Positions 6,531 to 14,505 of a DNA stretch of 14,616 bases are shown piece by piece. The translations under genes were made by a program, and so were the position numbers. Within the stretch, counting starts at the first letter, position 1. The number at the start of each line of letters is the position of its first letter. The notes below the pieces were generated by a model. The model was not told where the DNA came from. It worked only from the letters and a program-made list of their open reading frames with translations, and did not search any database. Origin of the DNA: Candidatus Thorarchaeota archaeon. GTDB taxonomy: Archaea; Asgardarchaeota; Thorarchaeia; Thorarchaeales; Thorarchaeaceae. Where the stretch lies: contig JAEOUG010000024.1 in the NCBI GenBank assembly GCA_016839445.1, positions 1 through 14,616 of the forward strand, in the 5' to 3' direction.

Positions 6531-8444
6531 ATGCACTCAGTCAATGAAAACGACTATGTCGACATTCGAGAGGAGGTCAAGAAGGCACTTCCTCGCTCTG
6601 CGCTCATCAGCTCAGTGGAGTATGAAGGTCCTGAGATAGCTATCTACTCGAAGGCGCCGAAGATACTGCTCGATGATGGCGATAAGATCAAGGCACTTGC
6701 TCGCAAGATGAGAAAAAGAATAGTCGTACGCTCGGCTCCCGAAGTGAGGCTATCTCATGAGGAGGCAGAGGCCACTGTACGGAAGGTGGTTCCCGAAGAA
6801 GCTGAGATCACCACAATCGATTTCGATATCTCTAGAGGAGAGGTCATCATTGAGGCACAGAAGCCGGGGCTTGTAATCGGCAGGAATGGAACAACCCTGC
6901 GAGAGATCACTCGCCAGACCTTCTGGAGACCAAACGTCATGCGGACTCCCCCCATGGAGAGCAAGCTCATCAAGCAAATCAGATACATCGTTCAGTCAGA
7001 GGCGGCCACGCGGAACAAGTCATTCAGGGAGATTGGTAGACGCATTCACAGACCCATGCTTCTGGACAACGGATGGGTCAGACTGACCGCAATGGGAGGC
7101 TTTCGCGAGGTAGGGAGACAGTGCATGTTCCTTCAGACCTCTGAGAGCAACGTCCTCATTGAATGCGGCGTGAATGTGGGAACGCCGAGCAAGGCCTTTC
7201 CACGACTGGACATGCCCGAGTTCGACGTTGACAATCTTGATGCCGTAGTCATCACTCATGCACATCTGGATCACTGTGGGATGGTTCCGTTCCTCTACAA
7301 GTATGGATACAGAGGACCCATCTACATGACCGCCCCCACGCTGAATCTTGCCACCCTTCTTCAACTCGACTACCTTGATGTGGCGGAGCGAGAAGGAAAG
7401 CTTAGACCATACAGAGACCGCGATGTCAAGGAGGCAATCCTGCATACAATCACCCTGAACTACGGTGAGGTGACTGACATTGCTCCTGATGTTCGATTGA
7501 CCATGCACAATGCAGGCCATATCCTTGGTTCGGCCATAGTCCACTTCCACATTGGAGATGGTCAATACAACATGGCCTACACCGGGGATTTCAAGTTCGG
7601 CAGAACAAGGCTCCTAGAACCAGCCACATTCACGTTTCCGCGTCTGGAAACTCTCATCATAGAGAGCACCTACGGCCATCCAACAGACAAGATGCCTCCA
7701 CGGCAGGAGGTCGAGAGGAAGTTTGCCCAGACGCTGAAGCGCGCGCTAGAACGCGGCGGCAAAGTGCTCATACCTGTTCTTGCAGTAGGCCGTGCCCAGG
7801 AGATCATGCTGGTAATCGAGGACCTAGAGAAGAAGAAGCGAATACCGAAGGTTCCTGTCTACATTGAAGGGATGATTGCCCAGGCCACAGCAATCCACAC
7901 CACACATCCCGAGGCACTCAGTAAGAAGATCCGGGAGATGATCTTCCATCAGGGCGTGAATCCCTTCCTCTCAGAGATATTCGTACAGGTTGACAACCCC
8001 GACCAGAGAGAGGAGATATCCCTTGGAGAACCCTGCATCATCATGGCCACATCAGGCATGCTTGCAGGCGGACCAAGCGTCGACTACTTCCGGCTGCTGG
8101 CGCCCGACGAGAAGAATCTGCTCTGCTTTGTCAGCTACCAAGGCGAGGGCACTCTTGGAAGACGAATTCAGAAGGGCTGGAAGGAAGTCCAAATGAGAAA
8201 CAGAGAGGGGCAGACAACGGTAGTCCCTGTCAATCTGGAAGTTGCCACCGTAGAGGGCTTCTCGGGACACTCCGACAGAAAGCAGATCATCAACTTCGTC
8301 AAGAGAGTCAATCCGGTTCCAGAGAGGGTTCTTGTTGCCCACGGAGAAGCCTCAAAGACCCTCGGTCTGGCATCGACCATCCACAAAGCACTGAACATAG
8401 AAACACGTGCCCCGATGGTCACTGAAACTGTGAAGCTCAAGTAA
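6531..8444 (+). CDS. fttA: beta-CASP ribonuclease aCPSF1 / transcription termination factor FttA
   Basis: 637 aa with N-terminal KH domains (VEYEGPEIAIYS, KPGLVIGRNG), GGFREVGR, THAHLDH, AGHILGS, YTGDF, ESTYG, PVLAVGRAQE, ATSGML, GFSGHSD and HGE. Conserved adjacency to psmB. Confidence 0.97.
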   Translation: MHSVNENDYVDIREEVKKALPRSALISSVEYEGPEIAIYSKAPKILLDDGDKIKALARKMRKRIVVRSAPEVRLSHEEAEATVRKVVPEEAEITTIDFDISRGEVIIEAQKPGLVIGRNGTTLREITRQTFWRPNVMRTPPMESKLIKQIRYIVQSEAATRNKSFREIGRRIHRPMLLDNGWVRLTAMGGFREVGRQCMFLQTSESNVLIECGVNVGTPSKAFPRLDMPEFDVDNLDAVVITHAHLDHCGMVPFLYKYGYRGPIYMTAPTLNLATLLQLDYLDVAEREGKLRPYRDRDVKEAILHTITLNYGEVTDIAPDVRLTMHNAGHILGSAIVHFHIGDGQYNMAYTGDFKFGRTRLLEPATFTFPRLETLIIESTYGHPTDKMPPRQEVERKFAQTLKRALERGGKVLIPVLAVGRAQEIMLVIEDLEKKKRIPKVPVYIEGMIAQATAIHTTHPEALSKKIREMIFHQGVNPFLSEIFVQVDNPDQREEISLGEPCIIMATSGMLAGGPSVDYFRLLAPDEKNLLCFVSYQGEGTLGRRIQKGWKEVQMRNREGQTTVVPVNLEVATVEGFSGHSDRKQIINFVKRVNPVPERVLVAHGEASKTLGLASTIHKALNIETRAPMVTETVKLK

Positions 8445-8448
8445 CGGG

Positions 8449-8844
8449 CTAGATTCTCACGAAGTGCGGTGTGACGATCATGCAGTCGTCATTCACCAGT
8501 GCAATCTCAGCTTGATAGCCTCTGGTCTCACCGCGGATGCGTTCAATGATTCTACGTAACTCAAGATGACTGTGGTCATTTCCGTCATTGAGCCGAGATA
8601 TGTCAAGCAGCACGATGTTGCCCTGCCGTATTTCATCAACAACATCGGGAACATCGGAGAGAGAGTGGACCTTCTTTGACCGGAGGAATATCTCCTCAAG
8701 TTCACTGAGCCGCTTTAGCTCCCTGGTTGGAGATGGCGGTGTGCCTCTAATCCTCGGAGAGAAGACGCCAAGACTGGGGAATGTTCGTTCTGTCTTTTCG
8801 TCTTCTTCGGTTCCATCGCTTTTGCGCTTGAAGAGTGACCTCAC
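8449..8844 (-). CDS. sepF: SepF-family cell division protein (archaeal type)
   Basis: The C-terminal core VHSLSDVPDVVDEIRQGNIVLLDISRL...LRRIIERIR...EIALVNDDCMIVTPHFVRI matches archaeal SepF. A short N-terminal MRSLFKRK could be the membrane-targeting segment, followed by a linker. The probable start is GTG 8844, 6 nt after a GAGGTG SD. The ORF track gives 8853. Confidence 0.82.
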   Translation of the reverse strand: MRSLFKRKSDGTEEDEKTERTFPSLGVFSPRIRGTPPSPTRELKRLSELEEIFLRSKKVHSLSDVPDVVDEIRQGNIVLLDISRLNDGNDHSHLELRRIIERIRGETRGYQAEIALVNDDCMIVTPHFVRI

Positions 8845-8895
8845 TACTTGCACCTCGATGTCATCTTTCTCTTCTAGACCTGTAAAGAAAAGACC

Positions 8896-8933
8896 GAGTA
8901 TTATAGGACATGAAGTTGGCTAATCTTTATCTG
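8896..8933. promoter_or_regulatory. Divergent promoter region between sepF and the helicase-like gene
   Basis: Minus-strand TATAATA (8899-8905) and plus-strand cTTTATct (8926-8930) in a spacer of about 100 nt. Confidence 0.5.
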
Positions 8934-8952
8934 ACAAGTCTAGCAAACGGCT

Positions 8953-11604
8953 GTGAGCAGGATGTCGTCGCGTAGGAAGGAGCCGCAATCCGAAGAAGAT
9001 CTTCCAAGTCAGTTGAAGGCTCTGAGCAACCGGCATGCCATTGAGATACTACAGGTTCTCAGTCCAGCTACAGGTGAGATGGTGCCCACTCTGGGATGGG
9101 ACAGCATTGTCGACGGCCTTCTGGCTCAGGATGGTATACAACCACCTCTAGCTCCGAAGTCTGGTGAGAGGACTCAAGAGCAGGTCGAATACGAGGAGAA
9201 GCGCCAGAGCCTCATGTCTGGCGGTACAATCTACGAAACCATGAACAAGTTGGCAAAGGCGAAGTTCGTCACATCATCAGGAGAGCGAGGGAAGAAGCAA
9301 CGTGGATTCATGATCACACACAAGGGGAGACTAGCTCTGGCAGCAGTGGGCCAGCTTGGAGGCCCAATCAGGGCGGATACTGATGTCAAGAGGGCAGCAA
9401 GCATACTCCTGAAACACAAGAACTTCGTGAGCCTTCTTCCCTCTCAGGAGAAGTTCCTGAGAGAGATACATGACATTGACACGAATCTTGTCATTCAGAT
9501 GCCGCCAGGATCGGGCAAGACTTTCCTGGCAATGATAGCTGTGCTTCTCAAGCTTCAGCAGGGAGTCAGGTGCCTCTACCTCAGCCCCTACACGTCCCTT
9601 AGCAGGCAGGTCGTCGAGGAATACGGGCCGCTATTCGAGGAATTGGGCTACTCTGTGGTGCGGCTCGATGGACTCCACCACGCTAGTGACAAGCAACTTG
9701 AGGACGCAAGCCTTCTCATAGTGATGTACGAGTCGCTATTCGAGGCACTTCTGCAGAAGAAGAAGTGGACCGACCACATAGGGCTAGCAGTGATTGACGA
9801 GCTGACAGAACTGGACTCGGCCCAACCCGAACTGGAGGCCCACACAGCGGGAACTGACCGGAGCACCAAGCTAGACATGGTAATTGCGTTCCTCAAAGAC
9901 AAGTCGCAACTCATCACGCTCTCATCTCGCTTTGGCGAAACGGGAGAGGTGAGTGACTGGCTAGGAGCACAGGTATTCCGCCCGGACGTCAGACTTGCAC
10001 CAGATGAGTTCATCGTCTTCAGAGAGGATGATGAGTTCAGGATAAAGAGCAGCGATGGTACGCAGAAGGCGTCGCTTCAGAAGGAGGATGCCCTTGATGC
10101 CGTGATGCTCCACCTTGGGGACTACCAGAAGAAGTCGGTCCTCGTGGTCGTGGGATATAGAACCCGAGCGGAGGGTGTAGCTCGCTGGTTGGCACAAAGA
10201 TTCCCTCGCAGTACGGCGGACGGCCTTCCTGAGCACATAATCGGATCTGGAGAGATGCTTCCGCTTAGCGGAAGACTTGAGCAAGTTCTCCAGTTTGGCA
10301 CTGCCTTTCATCATTCAGGATTGGACGCGGGAGTGAGAGAGCGCCTTGAACATGCAATCGGAGAAAAGCAAGTAAGAACGGTAGCATCCACGACAGGTAT
10401 TACCTCAGGAATCAGCTTCCCATTTGACTGCGTCATCATCCTCCTTGACCCCAACATGTACTTCATGACCACACGTTCAAGATACCTACAGGTTGCCGGC
10501 AGGATTGGGGAGTATCATCTCTCACGTCATGGAGGTCGCGTTTACTTGGTTTTCGAGGGCCCTTCCAGGAGATTCAGCACACCCGAAGTGATGCAGGACA
10601 GACTCCTAAACAAGCCTCTAGAACCCCTGTTTCCGGGAGGCATGTATCCAGGTCTAGCTGTTGGTATCCTTGTCAGAGAAGCCTTCACACGGAAGAAGTT
10701 CACCCGTGACAGCCTTGAGAAGTGCTTCCTTGATAGAGTGCGGTCAACGCTTAGGGCACGGATTGACAGGGACTACTCAGACGAGATGACCGATTACTTC
10801 AGAACGACCTTCAACTGGATGGTACGAGAGAAGGTCTTCGAGAAGGTGGAGAAGGAATACAAGATGGCCAAGGACGCAAAAGCTGCAGTTGAAGCAGGCC
10901 TTGACATCCTTGATTTCCTCTCTGTTCGCGGGCGCCTAGAGAATCTCGGTTCGCAAGATCTCGTCGACATTCTCTTGGACCTGCGCCTCCCTCAGGCAAT
11001 ACGACCTCGCACCATCCGACCGTTGGTTGCTGAACTTGACATAATGGGTATTGAGCAACCTGATGACTGGTATCTGCAGCGGCTGCCAGAGAGAAGAGAA
11101 ACCAAGAAGATGGTAATCGAGAAGTGGATTGACGAGAAGGAGGTCGGCGAGATAGTTGAGGAGGCTCGTGAGTCCACTCGTGGCATAACTCTCGATGAGG
11201 GAGACTTGGCGTCTCTGTTGGGCATCTGTAGCGATGCAGCAGTCAATCTTGCAGGATACCTGAAGTCGATGAAGAAGAAGGACCTTGCAGACGAAATGCA
11301 GGTACTCGGAAGACGGCTTAGATATGGCGTACGAAAGGACTTGGCGAAGTCAGATCTTCTAGAATTGAAACTCCTGGCCGGAGACGACACACCCTCCAAC
11401 AGGTTGCCAAGAGCCGACGCCAGAGTCCTGTTCGAACGAGGGTATGAGTCAATCAGGGACGTTGTGAGAAAGGATATCGATGCCAGCAAGAGAGGCCTAG
11501 CGAGAGACCGGTTCGCACAGAACAGCGGACTGGAACCTGGGCGTGCAATCGATATCTACAAGGCCGCTCTGAAGCACATTCGCGCGAGTATCGAAGATGG
11601 CTAG
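8953..11604 (+). CDS. Ski2/Hel308-like SF2 (DEAD/DEAH-box family) helicase homolog with an N-terminal winged-helix domain and degenerate catalytic motifs
   Basis: Q motif LLPSQEK, Walker A MPPGSGKT, Ia SPYTSLSRQ, II IDELTEL, AFHHSGL, V STTGITSGISFP and VI QVAGRIG. The C-terminus RLRYGVRKDL...RADARVLFERGYESIRDV is Hel308-like. The start may be ATG 8962. Confidence 0.85.
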   Translation: MSRMSSRRKEPQSEEDLPSQLKALSNRHAIEILQVLSPATGEMVPTLGWDSIVDGLLAQDGIQPPLAPKSGERTQEQVEYEEKRQSLMSGGTIYETMNKLAKAKFVTSSGERGKKQRGFMITHKGRLALAAVGQLGGPIRADTDVKRAASILLKHKNFVSLLPSQEKFLREIHDIDTNLVIQMPPGSGKTFLAMIAVLLKLQQGVRCLYLSPYTSLSRQVVEEYGPLFEELGYSVVRLDGLHHASDKQLEDASLLIVMYESLFEALLQKKKWTDHIGLAVIDELTELDSAQPELEAHTAGTDRSTKLDMVIAFLKDKSQLITLSSRFGETGEVSDWLGAQVFRPDVRLAPDEFIVFREDDEFRIKSSDGTQKASLQKEDALDAVMLHLGDYQKKSVLVVVGYRTRAEGVARWLAQRFPRSTADGLPEHIIGSGEMLPLSGRLEQVLQFGTAFHHSGLDAGVRERLEHAIGEKQVRTVASTTGITSGISFPFDCVIILLDPNMYFMTTRSRYLQVAGRIGEYHLSRHGGRVYLVFEGPSRRFSTPEVMQDRLLNKPLEPLFPGGMYPGLAVGILVREAFTRKKFTRDSLEKCFLDRVRSTLRARIDRDYSDEMTDYFRTTFNWMVREKVFEKVEKEYKMAKDAKAAVEAGLDILDFLSVRGRLENLGSQDLVDILLDLRLPQAIRPRTIRPLVAELDIMGIEQPDDWYLQRLPERRETKKMVIEKWIDEKEVGEIVEEARESTRGITLDEGDLASLLGICSDAAVNLAGYLKSMKKKDLADEMQVLGRRLRYGVRKDLAKSDLLELKLLAGDDTPSNRLPRADARVLFERGYESIRDVVRKDIDASKRGLARDRFAQNSGLEPGRAIDIYKAALKHIRASIEDG

Positions 11605-13300: not shown

Positions 13301-14029
13301 GTGGAGGGTTATAGAACGATCACTAAGCATCGAGCTCCTAAACTGGCAATTCTCTTTGCGATGACGTTTCTCTTGACCACGCCCATTGTGGCGATGGCGG
13401 GGAACCAAGGGCTATCGTGGGCCGTACCCATAGGCGAAACGAGAGACTTCGACCTATACCGCGAGAGGAACTCGACCATGCTTGGCTATTCTCTGATTGA
13501 CGAAACAGTCACTCTGAACATAACCGAGCACCCCGAGATTCCTGAAGACATCACTGTATGGCAATCCTATGCCGAGTTTGTGGGGATTCCTGAGATTGAG
13601 CGAATAGGCTACTGGGAGAACGGAACAGCGATGGGGATGTGGGCGTATCTCATCATAACTCCAATTCTCATCCCTGTGGGCAACTGGACTCTCATCGCCG
13701 CCCTCTTGGGCGACTACCTCTCAGATATCGCGGTGGAGTATACGTCGGAAGTCATCAACGACGGGCAACGCATAGGCTTCAGATACTCGGCTCAGATTAC
13801 AGACTATAGTGAAATCAGAGAGGCATGGTGGAGCAAGGCCGATGGGATGCTCATTCACTACCGATGGTACCATTATGACTTCAGATTCGAGGGGCTGGAA
13901 ACAGAGTCGGATATAGTAGCAGATGCCGTGCAGCCGCAATTTCCCTCGAGTGTGGTCATCCTCGTCGGAGGGGTTGCTGGCGCAGTGATTATCCTTGGTG
14001 CGGTCGTCTTCCTAAGGAAAAAGAGCTGA
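13301..14029 (+). CDS. Hypothetical exported protein with a C-terminal membrane anchor
   Basis: Basic plus hydrophobic signal peptide (KHRAPKLAILFAMTFLLTTPIVAMA), an acidic/aromatic ectodomain with four N-x-S/T sequons, and a C-terminal TM helix followed by RKKS. Start uncertain. Confidence 0.8.
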   Translation: MEGYRTITKHRAPKLAILFAMTFLLTTPIVAMAGNQGLSWAVPIGETRDFDLYRERNSTMLGYSLIDETVTLNITEHPEIPEDITVWQSYAEFVGIPEIERIGYWENGTAMGMWAYLIITPILIPVGNWTLIAALLGDYLSDIAVEYTSEVINDGQRIGFRYSAQITDYSEIREAWWSKADGMLIHYRWYHYDFRFEGLETESDIVADAVQPQFPSSVVILVGGVAGAVIILGAVVFLRKKS

Positions 14030-14073: not shown

Positions 14074-14388
14074 CTAATCTTCGCCGCGGTCTTCTCGACG
14101 GGGCTTTGTGTAGGAGGCGAAGGACCGTGTTGCGGGACGACCCTGACGACCGCCGACGGGAAGAGGACCGGCAGATGATGCCCGGTTTCCGGGAGTGTAG
14201 GACACATCATAGCCGTACGAGCCCTGCATAACCGAGTAACCATCCTCTGTTCTCGGTCTGCCACCTGTGCGCTCTAGGCGCCTTGGGGGACCGCTCTTGC
14301 ACATGGTGATGAAGATGACGTACAAAGCCCCCAAGATGCATCCTGCAAAGAAGATGTAGATGGGGATGTACTCCAGATAGAATTGCAC
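14074..14388 (-). CDS. Hypothetical small single-pass membrane protein
   Basis: One hydrophobic helix (IPIYIFFAGCILGALYVIFITMC) followed by a basic, Gly/Arg/Pro-rich tail. It fills the gap between the exported-protein gene and the tRNA. A start at GTG 14388 is a guess, as the ORF is open to 14493. Confidence 0.55.
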   Translation of the reverse strand: MQFYLEYIPIYIFFAGCILGALYVIFITMCKSGPPRRLERTGGRPRTEDGYSVMQGSYGYDVSYTPGNRASSAGPLPVGGRQGRPATRSFASYTKPRREDRGED

Positions 14389-14505
14389 TTCTCGCCTGTC
14401 ACCAGTATCATATACTCGCGAAAGCATTTGAGGTTGCTCATAGAGTGTGCCGGACTCGTGATAGGGGATGGTCCACAGATTCTCTCGTGGCAATCACTCC
14501 ACAAT

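Follow-up and report, generated by a model that had tools for sequence, protein, structure and literature searches.

A Hel308-like helicase carrying an additional N-terminal winged helix in a family of Thorarchaeota

Archaeal Ski2-like helicases have been grouped as Hel308, ASH-Ski2 and Brr2-like proteins in a survey that included 27 Thorarchaeota genomes and whose main text carries no mention of winged helix-turn-helix (wHTH), PadR, MarR or HTH domains (PMC10946056). The five-domain Hel308 has been described together with the N-terminal extension of bilaterian HELQ, to which the relevant part of that account ascribes regulation and partner binding and no DNA-binding activity (PMC13623763). 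The Ski2-like helicases HamB and BrxHI act in defence (PMC12839542, PMC12458937), and a N-terminal wHTH occurs on the YprA-type superfamily 2 (SF2) helicase of the Dpd defence systems (PMC12458937). Here we analyzed a 14,616-nucleotide stretch from a Candidatus Thorarchaeota archaeon (contig JAEOUG010000024.1, hereafter the window), whose forward strand encodes at positions 8953..11604 a Hel308-like motor preceded by an extra wHTH. Judging from the sequence comparisons described below, the fusion is real and conserved, and it belongs to a so far undescribed clade.

No description of a wHTH-Hel308-like helicase was found in the literature searched, the supplementary trees and sequence lists of PMC10946056 lying outside that search; the "Hel308-Ski2" group of that work may already include these Thorarchaeota sequences in its supplements. 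The portions of PMC12993045 and PMC7776575 covered by the search held nothing on the family either. Databases name the protein just "DEAD/DEAH box helicase" or "replicative superfamily II helicase", and a single JGI label reads "DNA-binding PadR family tra...".

The helicase motor and its relation to canonical Hel308

The open reading frame (ORF) was found to be uninterrupted over 883 codons, from GTG 8953 to the stop codon TGA at 11602-11604. The true start is likely ATG 8962 (codon 4), which would yield a protein of 880 aa, as the homologue alignments begin at the methionine of this codon. The database gene call for the contig (P0002, 863 aa from TTG 9013) looks truncated at the N-terminus, since the conserved residues L17, Q20 and L21 fall upstream of TTG 9013. 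About 150 aa precede the helicase core, in agreement with the long extension upstream of the Q motif that an earlier reading of this DNA, made from the sequence alone, had pointed out; the core itself opens with the Q motif LLPSQEKF (Q165) and the Walker A motif PPGSGKT (aa 184-190).

The RecA1 domain spans aa 150-345 (9400..9987, plus strand), is matched by Pfam DEAD at 2e-18 and contains Q165 and motifs I (PPGSGKT), Ia (PYTSL), II (DELT) and III (LSS). It is followed on the same strand by RecA2 at aa 346-540 (9988..10572; Pfam Helicase_C, 1.3e-5), with motifs IVa (AFHHSGL), V (TTGITSGISFP) and VI (QVAGRIGE), and by the Hel308-type domains 3-5, namely the internal winged helix, the ratchet and the helix-hairpin-helix, at aa 541-883 (10573..11601), which were placed by profile alignment with approximate inner boundaries. 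By sequence, a complete five-domain Hel308-type motor is present, because a profile built from 52 family members aligned in one stretch to the structure of Hjm (2zj2; aa 152-839 versus 18-674, 6.9e-40) and to that of S. solfataricus Hel308 (2va8; aa 157-840 versus 30-686). The single sequence also returned a match to Hjm-type domains at aa 705-838. With motifs Q, I, Ia, II, III, IV, V and VI in place and domains 3-4 aligning to Hjm, the protein falls among the Ski2-like SF2 helicases, and neither Walker A nor the DE of motif II varies within the family.

Its profile scores and motifs show, however, that the protein is no canonical Hel308. Against cut-offs of 887-1216, it reached 80.5-123.9 bits with the NCBIfam equivalog models for Hel308 (NF040935, NF002654, NF001308 and NF002251), and the canonical Hel308 of the same genome (contig C20) scored 617 bits, a value also under the strict cut-off yet about six times higher than that of the wHTH-helicase. 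Motif Ia reads PY(T/K) instead of PL(R/K), motif II DELT instead of DE(I/V)H, motif III LSS instead of SAT and motif VI GRIGE instead of GRAGR. DELT, LSS and GRIGE are invariant in the Thorarchaeota family, and motif IVa AFHHSGL alone stays canonical (F/YHHAGL). In motif VI the canonical second arginine is replaced by E520, a glutamate invariant in the family, which suggests an altered coupling of ATP hydrolysis.

The genome from which the window derives (2.9 Mb in 190 contigs, 89.8% complete, 6.45% estimated contamination) was inspected for further helicases. The canonical Hel308 on C20 is a 740-aa frame beginning MRVDEIDINKRIVDYLKKNGIEELFPPQ, thus starting at the Q motif, much as the sequence-only reading had stated for canonical Hel308 in general; a TAG seen in this frame is a stop codon upstream of its start and not a break. 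Immediately upstream of the gene (L001) is an MCM-like AAA+ gene, whose frame, as judged by eye, ends just before that of Hel308. The genome also encodes a second Hel308-like protein (C46), an ASH-Ski2-like helicase with cysteine clusters (C62), an Lhr-like helicase (C77) and a zinc-ribbon helicase (C65). Hence the genome holds a canonical hel308 in addition to the gene in the window, and the reading of the latter as a separate paralog of Hel308 type, extended at its N-terminus by a wHTH, was borne out by the NCBIfam scores, the wHTH profiles and the separate clade reported below.

The N-terminal winged helix

The region upstream of the motor had been read as ArsR-like first helices followed by a PadR-like recognition helix and wing. 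The peptides on which this reading was based are indeed there, LKALSNRHAIEILQVL at aa 21-36 and SGGTIYETMNKLAKAKFVTS...KKQRGFMITHKGRLAL at aa 89-129, and both pieces are of wHTH type. According to hhalign, however, they are not two modules and would be the halves of a single MarR/PadR-type wHTH, with helices 1-2 in the first and helix 3 and the wing in the second. Helices 1-2 were assigned to aa 20-57 (QLKALSNRHAIEILQVLSP...LGWDSIVDGLL; 9010..9123, plus strand) from the hhalign alignment to the wHTH domains of related helicases, and the recognition helix and basic wing to aa 88-131 (SGGTIYETMNKL...GKKQRGFMITHKGRLAL; 9214..9345, plus strand) from the Pfam PadR match at aa ~87-130 and from wHTH matches in the PDB. 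Between helix 2 and the recognition helix the domain is split by a charged, family-specific insert of 30 aa (aa 58-87; 9124..9213, plus strand), which appears as a gap in the hhalign comparison with the related helicases, where it is missing. A linker of 18 aa (aa 132-149; 9346..9399, plus strand), with no invariant position, connects the wHTH to the start of the Hel308 alignment at aa ~150.

Pfam PadR matched all the 12 family N-domains tested, every one under the 27-bit cut-off, with a best E-value of 4.5e-5; the window protein scored 22.9 bits with the N-domain alone and 19.5 bits (E 1e-3) with the full protein. The same 12 domains were also matched by HTH_34 (10), TrmB (7) and F-93_WHD (6). 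When the N-domain profile was compared with the PDB, three chains only were returned at E<=10, each of them a winged helix: 1tbx (SSV1 F-93, 0.14), 3elk (PadR-like TA0346, 0.86) and 3l7w (PadR-type SMU.1704, 0.94). The strongest evidence for the putative wHTH is transitive, passing from the family N-domain to the related helicases and from these to Pfam MarR. The hhalign comparison of the family N-domain with the N-domains of related metagenomic helicases gave a probability of 96% and an E-value of 3.7e-9 over aa 25-132, and one of these relatives (P0136) exceeds the Pfam MarR cut-off with 35.1 bits versus 24.6. Among 30 related helicases, matches were recorded to MarR_2 (8), MarR (6), HVO_A0261_N (6), HTH_34 (4) and HTH_45 (4).

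Conservation was evaluated over the 52 family sequences. The recognition helix and wing showed 16 invariant positions out of 44 (36%), the highest share in the protein, to be compared with 26% in RecA1, 20% in RecA2 and 5-10% in domains 3-5. Helices 1-2 have 9 invariant positions out of 38 and no indels, and the insert measures 30 aa in 52/52 sequences with a variable sequence devoid of invariant positions. The net charge of the wing region ranges from +3 to +7 in all 52. This pattern indicates that the basic recognition helix and wing are under strong purifying selection.

Winged helices of replication and repair proteins often bind proteins, and the wHTH might be a protein-protein module, contacting for instance RPA, a nuclease or a clamp, that does not bind nucleic acid. 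The conservation of the whole domain would fit a conserved partner as well as a nucleic-acid site, and the N-terminal extension of bilaterian HELQ binds partners and not DNA, as far as it is described in PMC13623763. Nevertheless, a basic wing and recognition helix recur in each of the 52 sequences, the nearest families are DNA-binding regulators and no partner gene is linked to the helicase at the Thorarchaeota loci, so that we consider this explanation unlikely.

Distribution, losses and the wider clade

The occurrence of the gene was surveyed in 400 genomes of the phylum, comprising 85 others in the family to which the window is assigned in GTDB (source label Thorarchaeota) and 314 sampled outside it. 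Matches at E<=9.4e-178 were obtained in 74 of the 85 family genomes, the best of them spanning query aa ~3-17 to ~880. Seventeen of the listed places, spread over 14 family genomes, are fragmentary, with a query coverage of <=75%, and 13 of these begin within 16 bases of a contig start. Among the remaining family genomes, nine showed Hel308-level matches only and two none. Outside the family, no ortholog was detected, none of the 314 sampled Asgard genomes scoring better than 1.5e-31; of eight among these best outside-family matches that were read, seven were canonical Hel308 proteins with their start at the Q motif, whereas the frame retrieved for the eighth belonged to a neighbouring gene. 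A protein search returned 220 matches, and 119 of those listed besides P0002 are proteins of 705-917 aa with 49-81% identity, mostly labelled Thorarchaeota, that cover 94-100% of the query in 116 cases and 79%, 89% and 89% in the other three; the full-length homologues measure 838-917 aa. These data show that the gene is restricted to one Thorarchaeota family.

The gene also occupies a constant position in this family, as the order aCPSF1-sepF-helicase-PUA-LSm was identical in 15/15 loci from 13 genera. These results bear directly on the possibility of an assembly chimera or a mis-called gene, with the N-terminal 150 aa and the helicase coming from different proteins, which the sequence-only reading had raised against itself by asking whether the fusion is kept in relatives. 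The window does belong to a metagenome-assembled genome with 6.45% estimated contamination. On the other hand, the frame is single and uninterrupted, the E<=9.4e-178 matches in 74/85 family genomes include, in the places listed, full-length frames from query aa ~3-17, query coverage is 79-100% in the 119 additional database proteins (94% or more in 116), and the locus is syntenic in all 15 loci compared. Furthermore, a contig from sequencing run X1, which may be the source sample, covers 8686-9482 with 0 differences, and a contig from run X5, belonging to a different study, covers 9166-9438, from the wing to 7 nt before the Q165 codon. The intact frame, the orthologs, the synteny and the independent-study contig thus exclude a chimera, whose probability we regard as practically nil. 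Near-identical DNA was detected in the sequencing data of six studies, whose samples came from marine sediment, estuary, mangrove and soil; the contigs from sequencing runs are short and none covers the whole gene, and no RNA run was present among the 20 listed sequencing runs carrying such DNA.

Family genomes without the gene were then compared at the same position. In a 96%-complete genome (L050, G392:C21), a 117-nt relic lies between sepF and PUA at 7849-7965, corresponding to the last 39 codons of the helicase including the stop (aa 842-880) with 67% identity; two genomes of the same genus have the intact gene, and the relic is a recent clean deletion. Among the other family genomes lacking the gene, sepF and PUA are spaced by 80-145 nt in two and by a 715-nt helicase-free gap in one. 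Several losses have therefore occurred since the family ancestor, so that the gene is dispensable. In the sister family, represented by one genome, sepF and PUA are 240 nt apart; given this empty slot, either the gene was inserted into a pre-existing cluster in the family ancestor or it was lost in the sister family. In three further genomes (G335:C9:1245-3754, G351 and G343) the helicase is found in two adjacent pieces or as a ~640-aa frame covering aa 1-632; these split or short frames may be frameshifts or truncations, i.e., further gene decay.

More distant relatives were retrieved by phmmer against 1.84 billion cluster representatives, which gave 21 proteins at E<=1e-30. After the orthologs, the next tier consists of proteins of 700-965 aa with Walker A at ~aa 125-150, whose alignment to the query often begins inside the recognition helix. 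Trees were calculated from the helicase part only, each sequence being cut 40 residues before Walker A. In FastTree (88 rows) all 39 wHTH-bearing rows formed one clade with support 100, and in IQ-TREE under LG+C20 (48 rows) all 23 formed one clade with an SH-aLRT of 99, apart from canonical Hel308 (16 rows, 95) and from 3 Brr2-like rows. These trees separate the three clades and not their deeper branching order, and the supports come from quick methods with long branches included. A phylogeny had been proposed as a check by the sequence-only reading, and these trees place the protein outside the canonical Hel308 clade, grouped with other wHTH-helicases. The signature motifs of the clade are PY(K/T), DE(I/L)T and LSS. 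The Thorarchaeota branch is long and pairs with a subgroup of 910-965 aa that also lost the second motif-VI arginine (GRVDH), a pairing that is unsure because both branches are long. As for the suggestion that the architecture is an undescribed one, it held in that no published description was found in the literature searched. The architecture is shared, however, by other proteins, the one in the window being the Thorarchaeota branch of a wider metagenomic clade.

Organism labels were available for 2 of 20 clusters: P0129 (RLI47313.1, "hypothetical protein", Candidatus Bathyarchaeota) and P0184 (a metagenome-assembled genome of Promethearchaeota). The clade is sporadic in Bathyarchaeia, with 2/251 genomes at E<=1e-60, and pattern scans confirmed clade loci at least once in genome contigs and at least four times in metagenomes. 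The sister subgroup (P0134) gave no match at E<=1e-45 in the 400 Asgard genomes. Among viral contigs, none of 129 family-pattern matches was confirmed, and the wider-clade alignment returned 13 distant RecA-only matches with 22-30% identity, none of which extended over the N-domain. In the 3/3 flanked loci of these relatives (L029, L065 and L063), the helicase adjoins a RNase H-fold or PolB-exonuclease-like gene (5.3e-10, 6.8e-6 and 4.3e-4, the last below cut-off), with nearby genes for a PLD nuclease and an AbiV HEPN protein, a HerA-like ATPase, or a PD-(D/E)XK/Exo5-like nuclease. L029 is a Bathyarchaeia contig (2-10142), and one PolB-exonuclease-like gene overlaps the helicase stop. Several further ORFs at the relatives' loci, 270-640 aa in length, matched nothing in Pfam.

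Proposed function, genomic context and comparison with known systems

We propose that the protein is an accessory Ski2/Hel308-like SF2 helicase in which the wHTH anchors the motor, acting in non-essential genome maintenance or in defence, a proposal that we believe and doubt in equal measure. The motor, with its invariant Walker A and B motifs, would bind ATP and, like Hel308, travel along a single strand in the 3'-to-5' direction. The wHTH, by means of its basic wing and its invariant recognition helix, would grip duplex nucleic acid or one conserved site or partner, and this grip would recruit or anchor the motor at particular DNA structures. The helicase would thus work beside the canonical Hel308 in non-essential genome maintenance, possibly in defence against foreign DNA, and not in core replication or RNA processing.

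A number of observations weigh against this proposal. The wHTH fold was assigned from sequence profiles, and wherever the Thorarchaeota domain itself was matched directly, in Pfam or in the PDB, the score lay below the curated or significance threshold. Winged helices also act as protein-binding modules, and E520 could mean a weakened ATPase instead of an active motor. A DNA rather than an RNA substrate would be deduced from the closest solved relatives, and the cassettes of Brr2, which are RNA helicases, score nearly as high per cassette (94.8 versus 140 bits); the total profile score is higher against Brr2 because its two cassettes add up (94.8 + 73.6 bits). Most of the genes around it in the window serve RNA metabolism or translation. 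As for defence, the PADLOC matches (HamB, SngC and PDC-M23B; 61 bits) are generic and of RecA level, and the exonuclease association of the relatives is weak, counting three loci with one Pfam match below cut-off. The exonuclease-like neighbours of L029 and L065 showed no similarity to each other by BLASTP, and no homologue of these two was found in the genome of the window, which is 89.8% complete. The association is therefore to be taken as a lead only.

The genomic context was considered with regard to a role in RNA metabolism. Upstream of the helicase, the plus strand of the window carries Pus10, L21e, Rpo4/RpoF, DUF655, KsgA, a small methyltransferase, FKBP, the proteasome beta subunit and aCPSF1/FttA; these are followed by the divergent sepF, the helicase, a convergent PUA gene, and then LSm and DUF1801. 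The sepF-like gene (8449-8853, minus strand; Pfam SepF 5.4e-12) is divergent from the helicase and is flanked by aCPSF1 and PUA/LSm across the family and in the sister family. Two further ORFs, 13301-14029 (plus strand, 242 aa, with hydrophobic N- and C-terminal segments) and 14074-14493 (minus strand, 139 aa), had no Pfam match at E<=0.01 and are not kept beside the cluster in the other loci examined. The position of the helicase within the conserved Pus10-to-LSm cluster, among RNA genes, would suit an RNA helicase engaged in processing, surveillance or transcription termination with aCPSF1/FttA, LSm or PUA, its wHTH binding structured RNA or that machinery. The Ski2-like relatives Brr2, Slh1 and Mtr4 act on RNA, and ASH-Ski2 works on both DNA and RNA (PMC10946056). 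However, the cluster persists without the helicase in the sister-family genome and in five helicase-less genomes, and the flanking sepF and PUA genes lie on the opposite strand, so that the helicase does not share an operon with them. It also evolves faster than its neighbours, with 44-62% identity across the 15 syntenic loci compared with 83-94% for aCPSF1, and its relatives in other archaea occur among nucleases and not among RNA genes. A function of this kind appears improbable to us, and a DNA-directed accessory role is preferred.

The divergent sepF/helicase intergenic region (8854..8961), which would include the promoters, was inspected in sequence and in an alignment by eye of 30 orthologous regions. 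A TATA-like CTTTATCT is located ~30 nt before ATG 8962. On the sepF side, the conserved motif GAAAAGACCGAGTATTAT occurs at 8880-8905 and at the same place in all 30 orthologous loci. It was considered as a helicase operator and rejected, as it is kept in four helicase-less family genomes; because it is retained where the helicase is missing, it is probably the sepF promoter (a minus-strand TATA) together with the transcript start. A palindrome, CACTCG-N7-8-CGAGTG, was observed ~8 nt upstream of the helicase ATG in several genera. L034, L036 and L040 have it in exact form, L038, L042 and L044 in an imperfect one, and it is absent from the window at 8930-8961 and from the rest of its genus (20/30 regions). 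In two complete genomes, G320 and G368, one exact copy was counted, at the helicase in both; G336 and G394 had none, and the sole copy of G313 is located elsewhere. We estimate that chance alone would give ~0.7 exact copies per genome, and a control pattern gave 0-1. The 3' arm of the palindrome overlaps a Shine-Dalgarno-like GAGTGA, and covariation is uninformative since the arms do not vary. This element could be an operator or, equally, a 5'-UTR (untranslated region) hairpin over the ribosome-binding site.

The sequence-only reading had considered the N-terminal module possibly sequence-specific and the protein a possible ATP- or nucleic-acid-sensing regulator or site-targeted remodeller, and the sole hint in this direction is the palindrome of those genera. 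If the palindrome were an operator, the protein might be a sequence-specific regulator or a self-regulated helicase, whose wHTH represses its own promoter or loads there and whose motor serves as an ATP-driven switch or remodeller. MarR/PadR-type domains usually bind operators, the recognition helix is nearly invariant, the sole exact palindrome of G320 and G368 stands at the helicase, and the lost second motif-VI arginine would suit a slow, switch-like ATPase. These arguments are opposed by the lack of the palindrome in the window and its genus and in G336 and G394, by the displaced copy of G313 and by the number of copies expected by chance. The coincidence of the 3' arm with GAGTGA would also allow an RNA hairpin or a plain ribosome-binding site, and no second site or regulon was detected in the five genomes, each with one or zero exact copies. 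In addition, Hel308-type helicases are monomeric, whereas palindromic operators need dimers. Regulation by the protein itself is thus a doubtful explanation.

Returning to the accessory helicase anchored by its wHTH, a more elaborate scenario would join several of these elements. The wHTH-helicases would represent a fourth archaeal Ski2-like subfamily, derived from a mobile helicase-plus-exonuclease module of defence or repair islands. The ancestor of the Thorarchaeota family would have captured one copy between sepF and PUA, later remodelled, by the 30-aa insert and the lost second arginine finger, into a site-anchored, switch-like ATPase that would mark or remodel one particular DNA site, possibly its own promoter, and not into a processive repair helicase. 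Taken as a whole, this scenario is quite unlikely.

In terms of classification, the gene points to a further, well-separated group beside the Hel308, ASH-Ski2 and Brr2-like groups of the scheme in PMC10946056, recognisable by the N-terminal winged helix and a motif signature of its own. For Asgard biology it adds a helicase specific to one lineage, dispensable in spite of its strong conservation, and its fixed genomic address eases the tracing of gain and loss. If the wHTH does target the motor, the protein would be a natural "guided" Hel308-type translocase and would offer a handle on how accessory domains re-purpose this motor, to be compared with the N-terminal extension of animal HELQ. Should it be just another repair-helicase paralog, the outcome would be a useful annotation and little beyond.

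Compared with known systems, the wHTH-helicase shares with archaeal Hel308/Hjm (2zj2, 2p6r, 2va8 and 9b15) the five-domain motor, motif IVa AFHHxGL and Walker A/B, and differs from them in the ~130-aa N-terminal wHTH, in an identity of 26-32% and in its separate clade. Its RecA1-RecA2 similarity to Brr2/ASCC3/Slh1 (2e-24, single sequence) is comparable to its similarity to Hel308; unlike these tandem-cassette proteins it has one cassette, with no Sec63 among the Pfam matches at E<=1, and forms its own clade. ASH-Ski2/Eta likewise combines a Ski2-like motor with an N-terminal accessory domain and is present in Asgard archaea, but that domain has four conserved cysteines forming a zinc finger (PMC10946056), whereas aa 1-150 of the wHTH-helicase contain no cysteine. 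With the PadR/MarR regulators (3elk and 3l7w) and SSV1 F-93 (1tbx) the N-domain has in common, at profile level and with direct matches below thresholds, the recognition helix and the wing, which is basic; in contrast to the PadR/MarR regulators it bears the 30-aa insert between helices 2 and 3, shows no evident dimerisation helix and is joined to a motor instead of standing alone.

Among defence proteins, the likeness to Hachiman HamB, a Ski2-like helicase, is partial (PDB 8vx9 match, 1.1e-9): the best PADLOC match reached 61.4 bits over aa 150-283 only, and the neighbours are sepF and PUA, with no HamA-like gene. The YprA-like helicase of Dpd systems demonstrates that fusions with an N-terminal wHTH occur elsewhere, YprA being a different SF2 family. 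The metagenomic wHTH-helicases (for example P0129, P0136 and P0184) have the clade, the motif signature and the N-terminal position of the wHTH in common with the Thorarchaeota protein. They differ from it in their length (mostly 700-830 aa, 910-965 aa in the subgroup), in having no 30-aa insert and in mostly retaining GRxGR in motif VI. They are also sporadic, with nuclease or defence-type genes around them; the Thorarchaeota gene, by contrast, is almost universal within the family and resides in a housekeeping cluster.

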